From a virus (lineage: Duplodnaviria; Heunggongvirae; Uroviricota; Caudoviricetes), in IMG/VR virus record IMGVR_UViG_2778261350_000008, positions 1 to 12,505 of that record: a stretch of DNA of 12,505 bases; one strand, written 5' to 3'. Positions within the stretch are counted from its first letter, which is position 1; every line of letters begins with the position of its first letter. Shown here piece by piece: positions 2,640-12,505 of the stretch. A program made the translations under genes and the position numbers. The notes under the pieces were generated by a model. It saw only the letters and a program-made list of their open reading frames with translations, was not told the DNA's origin and did not search any database.

Positions 2640-5600
2640 ATGGGTAAAGGTGGTGGTAAGGCGCATACGCCCCGTGAAGCCAGAGATAATCTGAAATCAT
2701 CCCAGATGCTGAGTGTGATTGATGCCATCAGCGAAGGACCGGTTTACGGGCCTGTTGACGGGCTGAAAAGCGTGTTTCTGAACGGCACGCCGGTACTGGA
2801 CCGTGAGGGGAATGCTAACTTTTCCGGTGTCACTGTGGTGTTCCGTGCCGGTGAACAGGAGCAGACACCACCGGAGGGCTTTGAATCCTCCGGTTCAGAA
2901 ACGGTGCTGGGGACGGAAGTGAAATATGACACGCCGATCACCCGGACCATCACGTCGGCAAATATCGATCGTCTGCGCCTGACCTTCGGCGTGCAGGCAC
3001 TGGTGGAAACCACCTCAAAGGGGGACCGTAACCCCTCTTCTGTCCGCCTGCTGGTTCAGATACAGCGTAACGGTGGCTGGGTGACGGAAAAAGACATCAC
3101 CATTAAGGGCAAAACCACGTCCCAGTATCTGGCCTCGGTGGTGGTGGATAACCTGCCGCCGCGACCGTTCAGTATCCGGATGCGCAGGATGACGCCGGAC
3201 AGCACCACAGACCAGTTACAGAACAAAACGCTCTGGTCGTCATACACTGAAATCATCGATGTGAAACAGTGCTACCCGAACACGGCACTGGTCGGCGTAC
3301 AGGTGGACTCGGAGCAGTTCGGCAGTCAGCAGGTGAGCCGCACTTACCATTTTCGGGGGCGTATTCTGCAGGTGCCGTCGAACTATAACCCGCAGACGCG
3401 GCAGTACAGTGGTATCTGGGACGGAACACTTAAACCGGCATACAGCAACAACCCGGCCTGGTGTCTGTGGGACATGCTGACCCATCCGCGCTACGGCATG
3501 GGGAAACGTCTTGGTGCGGCGGATGTGGACAAATGGGCGCTGTATGTCATCGGCCAGTACTGCGACCAGTCAGTGCCGGACGGCTTTGGTGGCACGGAGC
3601 CGCGCATCACCTGTAATGCCTGGCTGACCACACAGCGTAAGGCGTGGGATGTTCTCAGCGATTTCTGCTCGGCGATGCGCTGTATGCCGGTATGGAACGG
3701 GCAGACGCTGACGTTCGTGCAGGACCGGCCGTCGGATAAGGTGTGGACCTATAACCGAAGTAATGTGGTGATGCCGGATGATGGCGCTCCGTTCCGCTAC
3801 AGCTTCAGCGCCCTGAAGGACCGCCATAATGCCGTTGAGGTGAACTGGAGTGACCCGGATAACGGCCAGGAGACGGCGACAGAGCTTGTGGAGGACACAC
3901 AGGCCATTGCCCGTTACGGTCGTAACGTCACGAAGATGGATGCCTTTGGCTGTACCAGCCGGGGGCAGGCACACCGCGCCGGGCTGTGGCTGATTAAAAC
4001 AGAACTGCTGGAAACGCAGACCGTGGATTTCAGCGTCGGCGCAGAAGGGCTTCGCCATGTACCGGGCGATGTTATTGAAATCTGTGATGATGACTATGCG
4101 GGGATCAGCACCGGTGGTCGTGTGCTGGCGGTGAACAGCCAGACCCGGACGCTGACGCTCGACCGTGAAATCACGCTGCCATCCTCCGGCACCACGCTGA
4201 TAAGCCTGGTTGACGGAAGTGGCAATCCGGTCAGCGTGGAGGTTCAGTCCGTCACCGACGGTGTGAAGGTGAAAGTGAGCCGTGTTCCTGACGGCGTTGC
4301 AGAATACAGCGTGTGGGGGCTGAAGCTGCCGACGCTGCGCCAGCGCCTGTTCCGCTGCGTCAGTATCCGTGAGAACGATGACGGCACGTATGCCATCACC
4401 GCCGTGCAGCATGTACCGGAAAAAGAAGCCATCGTGGATAACGGGGCGCACTTTGACGGTGACCAGAGCGGCACGGTGAATGGTGTCACGCCGCCGGCAG
4501 TGCAGCATCTGACCGCCGAAGTCACCGCAGACAGCGGGGAATACCAGGTGCTGGCGCGATGGGACACGCCGAAGGTGGTGAAGGGTGTGAGCTTCCTGCT
4601 TCGTCTGACCGTGGCAGCGGACGACGGCAGTGAGCGGCTGGTCAGCACAGCCAGGACGACGGAAACCACATACCGCTTCAGGCAGCTGGCGCTGGGGCGT
4701 TACACGCTGACGGTACGGGCGGTAAATGCCCAGGGGCAGCAGGGGGATCCGGCGTCGGTATCGTTCCGGATTGCCGCACCGGCAGCGCCGTCACGGATTG
4801 AGCTGACGCCGGGCTATTTTCAGATAACCGCCACGCCGCATCTTGCGGTTTATGATCCGACGGTACAGTTTGAGTTCTGGTTCTCGGAAAAGCGGATTGC
4901 GGATATCAGGCAGGTTGAAACCACAGCCCGCTATCTTGGCACGGCGCTGTACTGGATAGCTGCCAGTATCAATATCAAACCGGGCCATGATTATTACTTT
5001 TATATCCGCAGTGTGAACACCGTTGGCAAATCGGCATTCGTGGAGGCTGTTGGTCAGCCGAGTGATGATCCATCCGGCTATCTGGATTTTTTCAAAGGAG
5101 AGATAGGGAAAACCCATCTGGCTCAGGAGCTGTGGACGCAGATTGATAACAGTCAGCTTGCGCCTGACCTGGCTGAAATCAGGACGTCCATTACGGGTGT
5201 CAGCAATGAAATCACGCAGACTGTCAATAAGACACTGGAAGACCAGAGTGCAGCGATCCAGCAGATACAGAAGGTTCAGGTTGATACCAGTAATGACCTG
5301 AACAGCATGTGGGCTGTGAAGCTGCAACAGATGAAGGACGGACGCCTTTATATCGCGGGTATTGGTGCCGGTATTGGGAACACCCCCGACGGCATGCAGA
5401 GTCAGGTGCTGCTGGCGGCAGACAGGATTGCGATGATTAATCCTGCAAATGGCAACACAAAGCCGATGTTTGTGGGGCAGGGCGATCAGATATTCATGAA
5501 CGACGTGTTCCTGAAATATCTGACGGCTCCCACCATTACCAGTGGTGGTAATCCTCCGGCATTTTCCCTGACACCGGACGGGCGGCTGACGGCGAAAAAT

Positions 5601-6119
5601 GCGGATATCAGCGGTAACGTGAACGCGAACTCCGGGACGCTCAACAATGTCACGATTAATCAGAACTGCCGGATTCTGGGAAAACTGTCAGCCAATCAGA
5701 TTGAAGGCGATCTCGTTAAAACAGTGGGCAAAGCTTTCCCGCGGGACTCCCGTGCACCGGAGCGGTGGCCATCAGGGACCATTACCGTCAGGATTTATGA
5801 CGATCAGCCGTTTGACCGGCAGATTGTTATTCCGGCGGTGGCTTTCCGCGGTGCCAGACATGAGCGGGAGAATAGCGATACTTATTCGTCATGCCGTCTG
5901 ATAGTGAAGAAAAACGGTGCTGAAATTTATAACCGAACGGCTCTGGATAATACGCTGATTTACACGGGTGTTATTGATATGCCTGCAGGCAGTGGCGTAA
6001 TGACACTGGAGTTTTCTGTATCAGCATGGTGGGTAAATGGCTGGTATCCCACAGCGAGTATCAGCGATTTGCTGGTTGTTGTGATGAAGAAATCCACTGC
6101 AGGCATCACGATTAGCTGA
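2640..6119 (+). CDS. J: Tail tip / host-specificity protein J (central tail fibre)
   Basis: 1159-aa ORF (lambda J is 1132 aa) directly after I. GGAG lies 9 nt upstream of the ATG. Position and size are diagnostic; the divergent C-terminal ~250 aa would be the receptor-binding part. Confidence 0.9.
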
Positions 6120-6186: not shown

Positions 6187-6786
6187 ATGCGTAAAGTTTG
6201 TGCCGCCATTTTGTCCGCTGCCATCTGTCTGGTCGTATCCGGTGCGCCTGCATGGGCGTCTGAGCAGCAGGCCACACTGAGTGCAGGGTATCTTCATGCC
6301 CGGACGAACGCTCCCGGCAGCGATAATCTGAACGGGATTAACGTGAAATACCGTTATGAGTTTACGGACACGCTGGGGCTGATTACGTCCTTCAGTTATG
6401 CCAGTGCCGAAGATGAGCGAAAAACGCACTACAGCGATACCCGCTGGCATGAAGATTCCGTGCGTAACCGCTGGTTCAGCGTGATGGCGGGGCCGTCTGT
6501 GCGCGTGAATGAATGGTTCAGCGCGTATGCGATGGCGGGTATGGCTTACAGCCGGGTGTCGACTTTTTCCGGGGATTATCTCCGCGTAGCTGACAACACG
6601 GGGAAAACGCACGATGTGCTGACCGGAAGTGCTGACGGTCGCCACAGCAACACGTCTCTGGCGTGGGGCGCTGGCGTGCAGTTTAACCCGACCGAATCCG
6701 TGGCCATTGATGTCGCTTATGAAGGTTCCGGCAGTGGCGACTGGCGTACTGACGGTTTCATCGTGGGTGTTGGTTATAAATTCTGA
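6187..6786 (+). CDS. lom: Lom / Ail / PagC-family outer-membrane beta-barrel protein (lysogenic-conversion type)
   Basis: 199 aa. N-terminal signal peptide MRKVCAAILSAAICLVVSGAPAWA. The C-terminus ...VDVAYEGSGSGDWRTDGFIVGVGYKF matches the lambda Lom C-terminus as recalled. GAGAGG RBS; lambda-like position after J. Confidence 0.85.
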   Translation: MRKVCAAILSAAICLVVSGAPAWASEQQATLSAGYLHARTNAPGSDNLNGINVKYRYEFTDTLGLITSFSYASAEDERKTHYSDTRWHEDSVRNRWFSVMAGPSVRVNEWFSAYAMAGMAYSRVSTFSGDYLRVADNTGKTHDVLTGSADGRHSNTSLAWGAGVQFNPTESVAIDVAYEGSGSGDWRTDGFIVGVGYKF

Positions 6787-6835: not shown

Positions 6836-6845
6836 TGGGGTGAAT

Positions 6846-9200
6846 ATGGCAGTAAAGATTTCAGGTGTACTGAAAGATGGTGCAGGTAAGCCGGTACAAA
6901 ACTGCACTATTCAACTGAAAGCCAGACGTAACAGCACCACGGTGGTGGTGAACACGGTGGCCTCAGAAAATCCGGATGAAGCAGGTCGTTACAGCATGGA
7001 TGTTGAGTACGGTCAGTACAGCGTCAGTCTGTTGGTGGAGGGGTTCCCGCCGTCACATGCCGGGACCATCACCGTCTATGAAGATTCCCGACCCGGTACG
7101 CTGAATGATTTTCTCGGTGCCATGACGGAGGATGATGCCCGTCCGGAGGCACTGCGGCGTTTTGAACTGATGGTGGAAGAAGCGGCACGTAACGCTGAAG
7201 CCGCCTCTAAGAGCGCAGCGGCGGCAAAGAAATCCGAAACTGCAGCGGCATCATCGAAGAACGCGGCGAAAACCTCAGAAACGAATGCAGCTAACAGCGC
7301 ACAGGCGGCAGCGACCTCACAGACTGCATCAGCAAACTCCGCGACAGCAGCCAAAAAATCAGAAACCAACGCGAAAAACAGCGAGACAGCCGCAAAGACG
7401 AGTGAAACTAACGCAAAGTCCAGCCAGACGGCAGCGAAGACCAGCGAAACGAATGCCAAAGCCAGTGAAACTGCGGCGAAAAGCAGTCAGGATGCAGCAG
7501 CCGAAAGCGAGAGTGCTGCAGCCGGTTCTGCGACTTCAGCAGCTGGATCAGCAACTGCTGCGGCTAACAGCCAGAAAGCCGCGAAGACGAGCGAAACTAA
7601 CGCAAAGTCCAGCCAGACGGCAGCGAAGACCAGCGAAACGAATGCCAAAGCCAGCGAAACTGCGGCGAAAAACAGTCAGGATGCAGCAGCCCAAAGCGAG
7701 AGTGCCGCAGCTGGTTCTGCAACAGCGGCAGCTAATAGCCAAAAAGCTGCAAAAACCAGTGAAACTAACGCAAAGACGAGTGAAACAAAAGCAGCAGCCA
7801 GCGAGACAGAAGCAACGTCAGCCGCAACAAGAGCAGAGAATGCAGCCCGGATTGCAGAAGATGCCGCTGATCCTGCTTCTGTCCCTCCGCTTCCTGATAT
7901 CTGGCTACCCTTGAATGATTCTCTGGAAGCGATAACAGGGTATGCCCCGGGCTATAAAACAATAACCATCGGCAGTGATGAAATAACAATGCCTGTTAAT
8001 GGCATATGCCAATTTAGCCGGGCTTCATCTGCAACGTATATTGATAAGTCCGGGCATATTACCGTGGCAGGGAATAACGTTCCTCGTTTTGAAAAATATG
8101 GTTTGCTGATAGAGAATCAGCGAACAAACATGTTCGTAAATAGTTTTAATCCTGATGCCTGGAATAAAAGCGGTGGTATATCTGTAACATCATCAACAGA
8201 TGAATTTGAGTTTAAATATGGACGTTTCACGGTAGGAAGCGATATAGCAGGAACGACAACAGGGCGAAATATATGCACAGTTGCTGGTAACAAAGGCATA
8301 GATGTGACTGGCGATGAACAGTACAGTAAAGGTCCGTATGTTACCGCGTCGTTCAGGGTAAGAAGTGATCTCAATGTTCGCGCACGTATCCGTTTTGAAC
8401 GGTATAACTCGGAAGGATACACCTTCCTTTGCGACGCCTATTTGTCATTACAGACCCATGAACTACAAATTACTGGTGGCAATGCCCAGCTATTAACAGC
8501 AAACTTTGAAATCGATCCAGGTAGTGGATGGATATATTTTCAGGCAACACTGAAATGTCTGCCAGAATGGGGAATGGTTGGTACGCAGCTGCAAATTGCA
8601 GCCGACAGAGCAGTGGGGGCTTTTGCAACAGGTGACTGGATAGAAGTAACCACCCCGCAATTCGAGTATGGTGCCTGTGCAACTTCCTTTATCATAACGA
8701 CAACAGAGCCAGCGACTCGTGCATCAGATTTATGTAAATTTCCGCTGATGAAAAATATGTATACCATGCCTTTTACGTTCATGGTGGAAGTCCATAAAAA
8801 CTGGTTTATTTCTCATAATGCTGCACCGCGTGTCATTGATTCAGAAAATCACCAGTCCGGAGGCCCATTTATTATGGGGTTTGGTTCTTCTGGAACTATC
8901 AGTCAGGATGGTTATTCGTATTGCGATATAGGCGGGGCTAACCGGCGTGTATATGAGTCATGCGGAGTAAGAGATCTCGTTATGGGATTCAGGGTTAAGG
9001 CTGACGGCATGACATGCTCATTTGCAAATAAGAATATAAGCACTGAAACCAAAACAGTATGGAAATATATTCGTGAAGCAGCCGTGATTCGTATCGGGGG
9101 GCAAACGACGACAGGATTACGACACCTTAATGGTCATATAAAAAACCTCCGTTTCTGGAACAGAGCATTGTCAGATACGCAGATTAAGGAATACGTATAA
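6846..9200 (+). CDS. stf: Side tail fibre protein, mosaic: lambda Stf-like N-terminus, Ala/Ser/Thr repeat shaft, foreign C-terminal receptor-binding region with a lectin-like (LamG/ConA-type) end
   Basis: N-terminus MAVKISGVLKDGAGKPVQNCTIQLKARRNSTTVVVN...VYEDSRPGTLNDFLGAMTEDDARPEALRRFELMVEE matches lambda Stf as recalled. The ORF track begins at a GTG (6840); the ATG at 6846 gives the lambda-like start. Residues ~120-330 are low-complexity SETNAK-type repeats. From about nt 7880 the DNA is visibly AT-richer, and the protein ends ...LRHLNGHIKNLRFWNRALSDTQIKEYV, which resembles the terminal strand motif of LamG-like jelly-roll domains. Confidence 0.8.
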   Translation: MAVKISGVLKDGAGKPVQNCTIQLKARRNSTTVVVNTVASENPDEAGRYSMDVEYGQYSVSLLVEGFPPSHAGTITVYEDSRPGTLNDFLGAMTEDDARPEALRRFELMVEEAARNAEAASKSAAAAKKSETAAASSKNAAKTSETNAANSAQAAATSQTASANSATAAKKSETNAKNSETAAKTSETNAKSSQTAAKTSETNAKASETAAKSSQDAAAESESAAAGSATSAAGSATAAANSQKAAKTSETNAKSSQTAAKTSETNAKASETAAKNSQDAAAQSESAAAGSATAAANSQKAAKTSETNAKTSETKAAASETEATSAATRAENAARIAEDAADPASVPPLPDIWLPLNDSLEAITGYAPGYKTITIGSDEITMPVNGICQFSRASSATYIDKSGHITVAGNNVPRFEKYGLLIENQRTNMFVNSFNPDAWNKSGGISVTSSTDEFEFKYGRFTVGSDIAGTTTGRNICTVAGNKGIDVTGDEQYSKGPYVTASFRVRSDLNVRARIRFERYNSEGYTFLCDAYLSLQTHELQITGGNAQLLTANFEIDPGSGWIYFQATLKCLPEWGMVGTQLQIAADRAVGAFATGDWIEVTTPQFEYGACATSFIITTTEPATRASDLCKFPLMKNMYTMPFTFMVEVHKNWFISHNAAPRVIDSENHQSGGPFIMGFGSSGTISQDGYSYCDIGGANRRVYESCGVRDLVMGFRVKADGMTCSFANKNISTETKTVWKYIREAAVIRIGGQTTTGLRHLNGHIKNLRFWNRALSDTQIKEYV
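7392..7748. repeat. In-frame tandem duplication inside the stf shaft (two units of about 189 and 168 bp)
   Basis: 7392-7580 and 7581-7748 are near-identical; unit 1 carries an extra 21 bp (7 aa, SAAGSAT). Each encodes AAKTSETNAKSSQTAAKTSETNAKASETAAK(S/N)SQDAAA(E/Q)SESAAAGSAT...AAANSQKA. Shorter, degenerate copies of the same motif flank it from about 7230 to 7800. Confidence 0.7.
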
Positions 9201-9469
9201 TGCGGGATATAACATTACGATTCGATAACAGAGAACAGTTTAACGCAATTGTATATGACAGTGGCCTGTTCAGTCTTGAAGAAGAAAATGGGATTCTTGT
9301 TGATGTTATTGGCGGCATTATTGATTACGAGGAGCCAGAAAACGAAAGATGTACAGGCATTGATCGCGGTGGTTTTTTCGTAAACATGAGGATTGTTGAT
9401 GGCAGTAAAAACATATCTTCTTTAATGCCTTTCATTACGACAGATCAGCATGTAAGGACATGGGCTTAA
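9200..9469 (+). CDS. Hypothetical 89-aa acidic protein, start-coupled to stf (candidate cognate fibre chaperone or accessory protein)
   Basis: Its ATG overlaps the stf stop (TAATG at 9198-9202). AAGGAA lies 8 nt upstream. AT-rich like the stf 3' half. I recognise no homologue. The same frame stays open for 39 codons after its TAA. Confidence 0.45.
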   Translation: MRDITLRFDNREQFNAIVYDSGLFSLEEENGILVDVIGGIIDYEEPENERCTGIDRGGFFVNMRIVDGSKNISSLMPFITTDQHVRTWA

Positions 9470-9593
9470 TGGAGCTTGCTTGTTCAGGTAGCCAGAGAAT
9501 CAGACGACAGAATAACAGCACTGGAAGAAGAAAACGCAGAATTAAGACAAAGATTATCTGCAATTGAGGCGGCGCTTGCGTCTGAATAATATT

Positions 9594-9618
9594 AAGGGGC
9601 CGAGCGCCCCGTTTTATT
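9594..9618 (+). terminator. Terminator-like hairpin ending the stf / small-ORF transcription unit
   Basis: Stem GGGGC (9596-9600) / GCCCC (9606-9610), loop CGAGC, followed by GTTTTATT. Confidence 0.45.
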
Positions 9619-9631
9619 GGGTAGGATGAAA

Positions 9632-9925
9632 ATGGATATAACACCTTTCCTTCATGCACTTTGTGCTGTGGCTGCGCAGGTACTGATTGGCCTTTTTACC
9701 GGAAACTGGGTTTACGGTGCGATAGCTGGTTGTACGTTCTTCATTGCGCGGGAACACACCCAGGCAGAATATTGCTGGATTGAAATGTTCGGGCATGGCA
9801 AGCGAATGAATATGCCGTGGTGGGGCGGTTTTGATCCGCGTGCTTGGGATGTGGCAAGCCTGATGGATTTTGCTGTGCCGGTGGTGGCGTGTCTGCTGGT
9901 CTGGCTGTTGGTTAATCGTGGGTGA
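9632..9925 (+). CDS. Hypothetical small inner-membrane protein with two predicted TM helices (prophage cargo candidate)
   Basis: MDITPFLHALCAVAAQVLIGLFTGNWVYGAIAGCTFFIA...DVASLMDFAVPVVACLLVWLLVNRG: two hydrophobic segments flank a charged, Trp-rich loop (EHTQAEYCWIEMFGHGKRMNMPWWGGFDPRAWD). AGGA lies 6 nt before the ATG at 9632. In-frame alternatives are ATG 9626 and TTG 9617. Codon use looks coding-like. No homologue recognised. Confidence 0.55.
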   Translation: MDITPFLHALCAVAAQVLIGLFTGNWVYGAIAGCTFFIAREHTQAEYCWIEMFGHGKRMNMPWWGGFDPRAWDVASLMDFAVPVVACLLVWLLVNRG

Positions 9926-9935
9926 AAAAAGGTGA

Positions 9936-10057
9936 GCTGTATATGCAACGGAGGAAGAAACCCCGTTGCTGGCGGCATGGAAGAAGTATCGGGTGCTGCT
10001 CAACCGAACTATACATCAGTAGCTCCGGACATTGAGTGGCCTGTACAACCGGAATAA
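9936..10057 (+). pseudogene. tfa: 3' remnant of a lambda-type tail fibre assembly gene (tfa), truncated and frameshifted
   Basis: One frame reads [28 protein letters not shown]. A second frame continues YTSVAPDIEWPVQPE* (ATG-initiated MEEVSGAAQPNYTSVAPDIEWPVQPE at 9977-10057). Together these match the lambda Tfa C-terminus as I recall it (...[36 protein letters not shown]...). No N-terminal portion is present; the segment begins right after the stop of the membrane-protein gene. Confidence 0.6.
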
Positions 10058-10079
10058 ATATCAGGAGGAGTAATTAATC

Positions 10080-11215
10080 GTGTCGACTCTGATTTCCGGC
10101 GTATTAAAAGATGGTGCAGGTATACCGCTGGCTGCCAGATTATCCTGAAATCCCGTGTAAACACCTCAGATGTGGTGATGTCTGTTGTTGCGCATATTGT
10201 AACCGGGCAAAACGGGGAATATGCGTTTGAGGCCCGGACGGGGAAGTACAGCGTTTATCTGAAGACTGACTGGCGTAATGAGTTTCAGGTTGGTGTTATT
10301 TCTGTTTATGAGGACTCACAACCGGGCACACTGAACGACTTCCTGATAGCAGTGAGTGATGCTGATTTGAAGCCGGACGTTCTGCGGCGGTTCGATGAGC
10401 TGGCGAGGCGTGTCCATGAAGACGCGAACAGCGCAGAACAGTTTGCCGGAGATGCCCGTCGTGCTGTGGATGAACTGGGCGGTAAGGTTCAGGACGATAT
10501 TCGTGACCGTACACCGGACCGTCTGGCTCTGCCCGGTGCTTACGGCTTCGGCGGAATATTCAGCCGCTCGGAAGCTCTGTCGTTTCAGGGGGTATCTGAT
10601 TTTGGTGCGTGGCTACAGAAAGCCACGCCGGGGCGTTATCCGGTCACTGTTGCGGATTCTTCTGCATTGCTGTTGGGCACCACGAAATTTAACGGCAACA
10701 TTGATGTGCTGTGGTCACCCTTTGATAACGACGGGTCGGACACAGCGCACAAATTCAAAACGCTGTTGTGTTACAACGAGCCACGTGCCGGAGAGCACGG
10801 GCTACACCTGCTCCAGTACTGGTACGAGGGCGACAACCTGCGGGTTGCGGGCAGTATGATAGTCTGCGACGCTCCGTCGCTGGCGACACTGCTGTCAGCA
10901 ACAGCGGGAGCGGACCCGTCAGGGTTCTACCGTTATCCGGCGGTGGGTTCCCTGTTGCTGGCAGCGTACCACGGGGCATCTGCCGGTGCTGGCGGGGTGA
11001 GTATTGCAACAGGCGACGTTGTTCCGGGCTCCTGTCTGGGGCCGGTGAGTATTCCGTGCGCGGTGAACGAAGGCGGCACAACTCCGTCGCCGCTGCGGGC
11101 GTTTGTTGGTGGTGCCGGACAGTACAATTTCCCCGGACGTTACCAGGCGTTATCCGGTGCAAATAATGTCCGTGGAAACAATGGGTTTATCTGTCTGTTT
11201 GTGCGCGTTGAGTAG
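10080..11215 (+). pseudogene. Second tail fibre gene (Stf N-terminal paralogue), disrupted by a 1-nt frameshift near 10131-10133
   Basis: The GTG at 10080 (GGAGGAG upstream) opens a frame reading VSTLISGVLKDGAGIPLAARLS*, which stops at 10146-10148. The -1 frame continues ...CQIILKSRVNTSDVV and joins the 347-aa ORF 10172..11215. The joined product aligns with the stf N-terminus (ISGVLKDGAG ; C-Q/T-I-x-LK ; VYEDSQPGTLNDFL ; LRRF-EL). The C-terminal part is Gly/Ala-rich and GC-rich. Confidence 0.6.
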
Positions 11216-11222
11216 GTGAGAA

Positions 11223-11816
11223 ATGAACGCAGTAAAAGATATTCGCAATCCGGTGCATCTCGGAAACGGCGCGGTTGACTGTGAGGTGCTGTTTGAGGGG
11301 CGCAGCGAGTACGTTGTTTATACGGCTGCGCCGGGCGACGCAGCCCCGACAGGTCAGCGTATCTGGCAGGAACTACAGAGCGGCAAATGGGGCGAAATTG
11401 CCCCGTTCACGGCCACGCCGGAACTGATAGCGGCGGCGAAGGATGCAAAACGTCAGGAAATTGAGGTGTGGCGTACCGAACAGGAAGCGCAGTCGTTCAC
11501 GTTTGAGTGGAACGGTCGAACCTGGAACGCGGGGCCGTCCTCACTGGCCCGGCTCACGCCTGCGATTACGGCGGCGGAATACGCCGGCGAGCAGGCTGTT
11601 ACCTGGAGCGATACAACCAACGAGCCGGTAAACCTGACAGTGCAGGAACTGAAATCGCTGGCCGTCGCACTGGCTCAGGCACTCTCTGAGCGGAACAACG
11701 CGATTTATCGTCGCCAGCGGGAGATGAAGGATACGTTAAACACCCTGGAGAATCTGGCAGAGGTGCAGGCGTTTAAGGTTGGAGAACAATCTATATTGGG
11801 GGTAAGCCGTATTTAG
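11223..11816 (+). CDS. Putative tail fibre assembly / chaperone protein (assigned by position)
   Basis: 197-aa ORF 8 bp after the stf2 stop, with AGGTGAG RBS. Contains a W-N-G-x-(T/A)-W motif ([11 protein letters not shown]) reminiscent of Tfa proteins (lambda Tfa has WNGTAW), but it lacks the lambda-type Tfa C-terminus seen in the remnant at 9936-10057. Confidence 0.5.
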
Positions 11817-12120
11817 CTCTTGCGCGGTTACACGCCTCATTGACGACGCCGTTCTCGCCAGACATGGCGAATTCTCTGCATGTGGATGATCGATTTTCAT
11901 ATATCGTGCAGCAGGCATTTTTGCCCGGAGTTCCAGCAAGGGCAACACATCTGGGGTTTTTCTGGTTTGTACCGATCATGCATCGGTGAAAAGGCGATAC
12001 TTGTTCAGTAAGTCTGGCGGGAATGGTGCCGCCGGCATCGTCGGCTTCGGCCCAGTAAAAAGAGACGCGGAAAAATGCACAACAGGCGCCACACGTCATG
12101 CATGGATTCAGATTGCTCAT
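11791..12120 (-). CDS. ykgJ: YkgJ-family cysteine-cluster protein (putative Zn/Fe-binding; UPF0153)
   Basis: 109 aa, beginning [25 protein letters not shown], i.e. the C-x2-C-G-x-C-C signature of the YkgJ family, with further C-terminal Cys residues ([17 protein letters not shown]). Convergent with tfa2 and overlapping it by 26 bp. Confidence 0.65.
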
Positions 12121-12139
12121 AATTCACCAGTACAGCTAT

Positions 12140-12188
12140 AAATCATAAAGAAAACAGCGGTACGTCGTATGAAAGAACTTACCGCTGT
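12140..12188 (-). terminator. Possible minus-strand terminator downstream of the DinI-like gene
   Basis: Inverted repeat ACAGCGGTA (12154-12162) / TACCGCTGT (12180-12188). On the minus strand it is followed by TTTTCTTTATGATTT. The 17-nt loop is large, hence the low confidence. Confidence 0.3.
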
Positions 12189-12256
12189 TGGCTGGTGAAC
12201 TTTTCGATAGTGCGAGTATTGAATGATTTCCAGCCGTTACCGATTTTACTCGTTAA

Positions 12257-12505
12257 TTAGCGAACAAACCACTCGTCAGCAGACTCCCAGGTATCTTTCA
12301 GCGTCTCCTGAACAAAAGTTTTTGCAGAATCTTTATCGGCGGTGCGAGTAACTGAAAGGCCATCGTTGCTGGTGGCTTTTATGATCACTTCTACATCGTC
12401 ATAACGCTTACTGATGCGTCGGGTTAATTCTTCCTTTAACGCATCCACAGCACCGTTTGGCATTTTAGTCATTTTTTCTTTGGCTATGCAGATCTCAATA
12501 CGCAT
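12257..12505 (-). CDS. DinI-family protein (DNA-damage-inducible protein I-like; modulator of RecA filament activity)
   Basis: 82 aa, [31 protein letters not shown]...[16 protein letters not shown]. Co-linear with E. coli DinI as recalled (MRIEVTIAK...AIDAL..EL.RRI...ETWESADDWFV). The ATG is the last three bases of the window (minus strand), so the promoter lies outside. Confidence 0.85.

Follow-up and report, generated by a model that had tools for sequence, protein, structure and literature searches.

The closest described counterpart of the locus reported here is the side-fibre gene stf of phage lambda. In laboratory lambda PaPa, this gene carries a single-base deletion in its middle, and its N-terminal part of 401 codons stays expressible. 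The stf gene of Ur-lambda is split there into orf-401 and orf-314, according to Hendrix & Duda 1992 as that work is cited in PMC12617516. The same paper describes residues 1-94 of Stf as a six-stranded antiparallel sheet with a helix, and 12 copies of Stf, supplied by four trimers, as a collar that clasps the gpV/gpM junction (PMC12617516). The locus that we describe resembles lambda PaPa in that an stf gene with a PF08400 collar, carried by a lambdoid phage, is most likely inactivated by a small frameshifting deletion, and in that J, the essential adhesin, is kept. It differs in that 4 bp are missing at codon 18, so that the collar would be lost and the distal part left without a start, and in that the prophage retains another, intact Stf. 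The likeness to the stf frameshift of laboratory lambda proposed in the initial annotation is therefore apt in outline, a frameshift relative to an intact orthologue being present here too, but the size and the position of the lesion are different: it affects four bases rather than one, lies near the 5' end rather than in mid-gene, and does not spare the expression of the N-terminal part.

The window, by which we mean the whole stretch of 12,505 nucleotides that was analysed, is the tail end of a lambdoid E. coli prophage, whose features are collected in Table 1. In complete genomes, the window genes are followed by the integrase and dusA, and the insertion site of this lambdoid prophage lineage adjoins dusA. 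The collar domain of the first Stf is 90% identical to residues 1-93 of lambda Stf. The first stf is one continuous ORF of 786 codons in the window; in the matching genomes RefSeq/PGAP annotates two pieces instead, an N-terminal pseudogene marked "partial" and a CDS of its own named "phage head spike fiber domain", a split that likely stems from a chimeric protein without a full-length relative.

Table 1. Coordinates of the genes, gene remnants and signals of the window.
Feature	Position	Strand	Description
M, L, K, I			precede J
J	2640-6119		
lom	6187-6786		
First stf	6840-9200	+	intact Stf, 786 aa; resident lambda-type side fibre
Fibre-gene debris	9200-10057		89-aa ORF (phrog_1361), 97-aa ORF (phrog_1443) and TAP 3' remnant
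Fibre fragment within the debris	9476-9589		37-codon C-terminal fragment of a tail-fibre-domain protein
3' remnant of tail-fibre-assembly (Caudo_TAP) gene	9945-10057	+	PGAP annotation
Shine-Dalgarno sequence of the ancestral fibre gene	10063-10070	+	AGGAGGAG, 9 nt 5' of GTG 10080
Second fibre gene	10080-11215		
5' fragment	10080-10148	+	17 native codons from GTG, then 5 codons out of frame and TGA
4-bp deletion junction	10129-10133	+	CCGCT^GGC^T; intact orthologues have CTGGCGGGCTGC and ATGCCGGGCTGT (DNA alignments)
Remaining 347-codon ORF	10172-11215	+	-1 frame; collar residues 33-93, linker or coiled coil, C-terminal distal (presumed receptor-binding) domain
DUF4376 gene	11223-11816	+	197 aa; PF14301, E = 1.5e-16; phrog_1141 "tail fiber protein"
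ykgJ-like and dinI-like genes		-	beyond the DUF4376 gene

Between the two fibre genes, debris of the fibre module is stacked, pieces of which are found in 1,910 of the 5,426 complete E. coli genomes; its 37-codon fibre fragment corresponds to an intact 234-aa gene in related prophages. Directly past this fragment, at 9596-9610, lies a GC-rich hairpin with a T-run on its 3' side (GGGGCCGAGCGCCCC GTTTTATTGG), which could mark where the late operon once ended, 5' of the imported cassette discussed below. A scan of the region for promoters and terminators gives site counts no higher than those of shuffled sequence. The prophage of strain KC-Dl-1 differs from the window at 52 positions and is identical to it over 10000-11300; the first 20 differences listed all fall within about 320 bp of J (3530-3850), a clustering that suggests a recombination patch in this gene. 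The remainder of the KC-Dl-1 prophage appears complete except for its tape-measure gene, upstream of the window, which PGAP flags as frameshifted (L002 1-1274 / L009 1145-3707), and this copy may be tail-defective whatever its fibres.

A search of 5.8 billion proteins for intact orthologues of the second fibre gene retrieves P0001, of 379 aa and 95% identity, and a second one, P0124, also of 379 aa and a member of the 90% cluster of P0001; their N-termini are MSTLISGVLKDGAGIPLAGCQIIL and MSTLISGVLKDGAGIPMPGCHIIL, respectively. The DNA of both (loci L003 and L004) was aligned with the window. Both orthologues possess four extra bases at the junction, CCGCTGGC[GGGC]TGCCAG, so that CCGCTGGCGGGCTGC and CCAATGCCGGGCTGT stand against CCGCT----GGCTGC in the window, and the deleted and intact alleles are told apart by the junction strings GGTATACCGCTGGCTGCCAG and CCGCTGGCGGGCTGCCAG. 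The exact placement of the deletion is ambiguous within a GGC...GGC microrepeat, and losses of this pattern at GGC microrepeats are typical of replication slippage, which would be the probable origin here. The deletion removes one codon and shifts the reading to the -1 frame, the lesion lying at codons 18-19. The comparison with orthologous genes recommended in the initial annotation thus confirms the frameshift, but not its nature: a single-base event had been proposed, and the gap against two diverged intact orthologues measures 4 bp. For the same reason we have dropped the single-base model in which GG arises from GGG. The expected length of the intact gene, given as 377-378 codons, has likewise to be replaced by 379.

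The consequences for the reading frames are direct. In frame 0, translation from the GTG at 10080, which has a strong ribosome-binding site whose Shine-Dalgarno sequence is identical in both intact orthologues, yields VSTLISGVLKDGAGIPLAARLS and runs into TGA after 22 codons; codons 1-17 of this product, VSTLISGVLKDGAGIPL, are identical to residues 1-17 of P0001, save for the M written for the shared GTG start. The -1 frame, which reads ...YTAGCQIILKSRVNTS... and ...YTAGCQIILKSRVNTSDVVMSVV..., is stop-free to TAG 11213-11215. It is open across the whole overlap from 10058, downstream of a TAA at 10055-10057, and between this TAA and GTG 10172 it contains no ATG, GTG or TTG, so that GTG 10172 is its first canonical start and ATG 10178 the next one. 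The gathering cut-off of Pfam PF08400, "prophage tail fibre N-terminal" (26.6), is exceeded only once both frames are rejoined, and the rejoined protein then gives a single match, of residues 2-130 to positions 2-131 of the profile (167 bits, E = 2e-49). The two-frame layout therefore reflects a disrupted gene and not open frames that occur by chance, and the gene of the window is not the single uninterrupted ORF with its own ribosome-binding site by which an Stf-type fibre is recognized. On these points the initial annotation is borne out: translation confirms that the first 17 codons lie in frame 0 and the remainder in the -1 frame, with the original frame stopping at 10146-10148; the switch, placed at about 10131-10133, occurs between 10129 and 10133; and a second Stf-type fibre gene is disrupted by a frameshift near its 5' end. 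The same 4-bp deletion is seen in a Logan contig (L010, SRR11277200, 1,961 nt) together with a 14-bp deletion corresponding to 10092-10105 of the window. The two deletions, -18 in total, restore the frame, so that an ORF of 373 aa runs from the native GTG (138-1259 of the contig), in which eight out-of-frame residues, KRWCRYTA, take the place of the conserved ISGVLKDGAGIPLA; this contig may represent a second-site revertant or an assembly artefact.

Judged from its sequence, the intact protein is a short Stf of 379 codons, composed of a collar domain, a short linker or coiled coil and a distal domain. Residues 1-93 match the N-terminal Stf chain of Ur-lambda (9e7m/9mgh), the only solved relative, with a sequence E-value of 8e-19. 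The AlphaFold model of the P0001 monomer, whose mean pLDDT is 58 and pTM 0.32, superimposes on 9e7m_Ta with a TM-score of 0.84 (Foldseek E = 1.5e-7); its predicted strands 2-8, 21-29, 33-42, 48-54, 56-63 and 70-77 and helix 86-89 would reproduce the six strands and the helix of the Stf collar fold. Residues 137-379 match the C-terminal part of phrog_2636, "tail fiber protein", and share about 50% identity with the C-terminal domain of E. coli fibres of 654 aa, a large family in which a long Phage_fiber_2 shaft separates the N- and C-terminal parts. The significant Foldseek matches in the PDB come only from the N-terminal domain, which leaves the C-terminal one structurally unplaced. The DUF4376 gene lies downstream of the fibre gene in every orthologous locus examined (L003, L004 and L006-L008), and its product may be a fibre chaperone, a role that no tool result backs, or a distal component of the fibre.

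The model that we propose combines these observations, and we regard it, taken as a whole, as very probably correct: a short Stf-type gene, brought in as a recombined cassette, has recently become null as a fibre gene through a 4-bp slippage deletion. The bases would have been lost inside codons 18-19 by slippage between the GGC microrepeats. Ribosomes starting at the native GTG, behind its ribosome-binding site, would terminate after 22 codons and release a peptide of 17 native and 5 foreign residues. The downstream frame of 345-347 codons offers no canonical start before codon 33 and no properly spaced ribosome-binding site, and a product starting at residue 33 or 35 would be devoid of β1, β2 and part of β3 of the six-stranded collar domain. 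No fibre able to attach to the tail would thus be made; we infer that adsorption would proceed via J and the intact 786-aa Stf, and that the cassette would stem from a contractile-tailed or baseplate-bearing prophage, with which recombination would have occurred at the remnant of the TAP gene. As a source of virion fibres, the gene is most likely null.

On the other hand, the gene could be shortened rather than lost, by reinitiation at GTG 10172 or ATG 10178 after the TGA of the 5' fragment. The resulting product of 345-347 aa would keep the distal domain and could act, for example, as a free receptor-binding protein or be carried on another fibre. We consider this unlikely, even though several observations speak for it: the candidate starts lie no more than 24-30 nt past the stop of the short ORF, the downstream frame stays open over 347 codons without further lesions and displays a dN/dS of about 0.2, the allele is widespread (at least 141 contigs), and PGAP annotates a normal CDS of 345 aa from ATG 10178 (WP_021549950.1). 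Against it, in the sequence that precedes the two starts, cagatgtGGTGATG, the sole string resembling a Shine-Dalgarno sequence is GGTGAT, which overlaps ATG 10178 and is not properly spaced, and a docking domain deprived of β1, β2 and part of β3 would be unable to enter the collar. The low dN/dS, for its part, is mainly a record of divergence older than the deletion. It amounts to 0.19 between the window and L003 and to 0.25 between the window and L004, and the intact pair L003-L004 also gives 0.25; as these values match that of the intact pair and no second lesion is found in 1 kb of the window allele, the inactivation is young compared with the divergence that separates the alleles. The copies of the deletion allele being near-identical, dN/dS is uninformative on selection after the deletion, and together with the open frame it fits a recent pseudogene and a retained truncated product equally well.

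The inactivation proposed in our model concerns a gene that appears to have been imported. The blastn homology between the window and L003 starts at 10037, with the last 21 nt of the TAP gene (10037-10057), and extends to the right end of the window with 96.7% identity, the counterpart of 10037-12505 being 9958-12430 of L003. Related lambdoid prophages (L011) end with the same TAP remnant and have nothing further, and 10037-10057 is thus the probable recombination joint. In L003, the gene of P0001 stands at the end of a Mu-like cluster encoding sheath, tube, homologues of Mu gp45/46/47/48, a 248-aa fibre and a 196-aa Caudo_TAP protein. In L004, the gene of P0124 also comes after a Caudo_TAP gene, the only gene upstream on this contig, the tail type being outside its view; the adjoining genes include lydB, darA and ddrB, which we take to be P1-like. 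The gene of the 654-aa family follows Baseplate_J, a fibre and a TAP gene, and phiP27 (L005) displays the same order with L54 (fibre), L55 (TAP), L56 (PF08400 fibre) and L57. Among the loci found, no intact orthologue was seen in a lambdoid tail module. At the level of the phage collection, megablast gives no match, and tblastn finds phiP27 and an Actinobacillus phage at 37-38% identity. On the simplest reading, the lambdoid prophage appears to have gained the block of fibre, DUF4376 and DinI genes through a recombination event at the 3' end of the TAP gene; transfer of the cassette in the reverse direction is possible. The capture reading implies that the two PF08400 genes of the window are not local paralogues; their collar domains are only 47% identical. 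The "second tail-fibre paralogue" of the initial annotation is hence right as to a second Stf-type gene and loose as to paralogy, the left junction suggesting import and not local duplication.

Could the PF08400 fibre and DUF4376 block be a portable accessory collar-fibre cassette, exchanged between contractile-tailed and lambdoid prophages via the conserved 3' end of the TAP gene and silenced here by a selected knockout at codon 18? We find this improbable. If so, a foreign subunit, whose collar is only 47% identical to that of the resident Stf, would vie for the 12 collar positions around the gpV/gpM junction, the knockout would reflect selection against an interfering subunit instead of neutral decay, and the 14-bp deletion of the Logan contig would testify to renewed selection for the expression of the distal domain.

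The ordinary pseudogene of our model requires that the deletion be a real, inherited allele, and its distribution speaks strongly in this sense. At the level of megablast, the gene is present in 8 of the 5,426 complete E. coli genomes, and all eight have the deletion. Over 10000-11300, seven of them are 100% identical to the window, and the eighth differs only at 10532. The hosts were a beluga whale (Korea), an armadillo and, for several isolates, humans, and the genomes were produced by different laboratories. Among the protein records, 141 contigs contribute the 345-aa call; a 385-aa call (P0122, ...RYTAGCQIIL..., …RWCRYTAGCQIIL…), which follows the -1 frame across the junction and whose start, back-calculated from its length, is a non-canonical ATA at 10058, is on record from at least 168 contigs. 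Some deletion-allele records bear the label Shigella sonnei or "MULTISPECIES Enterobacteriaceae". The records of 385, 370, 357 and 345 aa are differing gene calls on one frameshifted sequence. A sequencing or assembly error, which would leave a phage with two intact side fibres and which the initial annotation had kept as an alternative, is effectively excluded and seems to us extremely improbable: the site is homopolymer-free, four bases are missing and not one, the deletion recurs in every matching complete genome whatever the laboratory, host or country, and proteins of the deletion allele come from 141-168 contigs.

Joining of the two frames by programmed ribosomal frameshifting or transcriptional slippage, through which a full-length fibre would still be made, could draw on the -1 frame being open over the entire overlap from 10058, but we reject it as scarcely credible because inspection by eye of 10080-10148 reveals no X_XXY_YYZ heptamer and no homopolymer run, the orthologues are single-frame, so that the two-frame layout is not conserved, and a -1 shift anywhere 5' of the deletion would replace conserved collar residues.

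In conclusion, the second fibre gene is most likely an ordinary recent pseudogene, created by a real and inherited 4-base deletion, as is expected in the mosaic fibre region of a prophage. The main value of this result lies in the correction of annotations and in host-range prediction. WP_021549950.1, which RefSeq names "prophage tail fiber N-terminal domain-containing protein" and gives 345 aa, and the older 385-, 370- and 357-aa records with non-canonical starts would all be calls on one frameshifted pseudogene, and only J and the 786-aa Stf should enter into predictions of the host range of the dusA prophage. The event itself is of the kind expected in the most recombinogenic part of phage genomes, and the locus illustrates cleanly how different tail morphotypes can share one fibre cassette.

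Compared with known systems, the intact form of the protein is nearest in its N-terminal part to the Ur-lambda Stf collar (9e7m/9mgh), with 47% identity over 93 residues and the same fold of six strands plus a helix. Beyond this part the two proteins diverge: lambda Stf possesses a proximal coiled coil of about 290 residues, for an equivalent of which a protein of 379 aa has no room, and in lambda Stf is followed by Tfa, whereas the window fibre, with its phrog_2636 C-terminal domain, is followed by the DUF4376 gene. The phiP27-like prophages, which have Mu-like tails, and the 654-aa family share the gene order of a primary fibre, Caudo_TAP, a PF08400 fibre, a small partner and the end of the prophage; L56 of phiP27 is 37% identical over the whole length, and the 654-aa PF08400 plus Phage_fiber_2 family about 50% over 82% of the query. 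The copies of phiP27 and of the 654-aa family are intact, and the genomes of L003 and phiP27 encode sheath and baseplate; unlike these, the copy of the window is frameshifted and sits in a lambdoid tail module of the siphovirus type. Finally, the N-terminal domain of the collar spike of the Vibrio myophage XM1 (7kjk) belongs to the same fold class (Foldseek E = 3e-6, phmmer E = 1e-3), although it is 22% identical, is located at the neck and not at the tail tip, and the rest of the protein is unrelated. The XM1 spike shows that contractile-tailed virions, too, can have collars built from this domain, and a PF08400 fibre on such a virion is therefore no anomaly.
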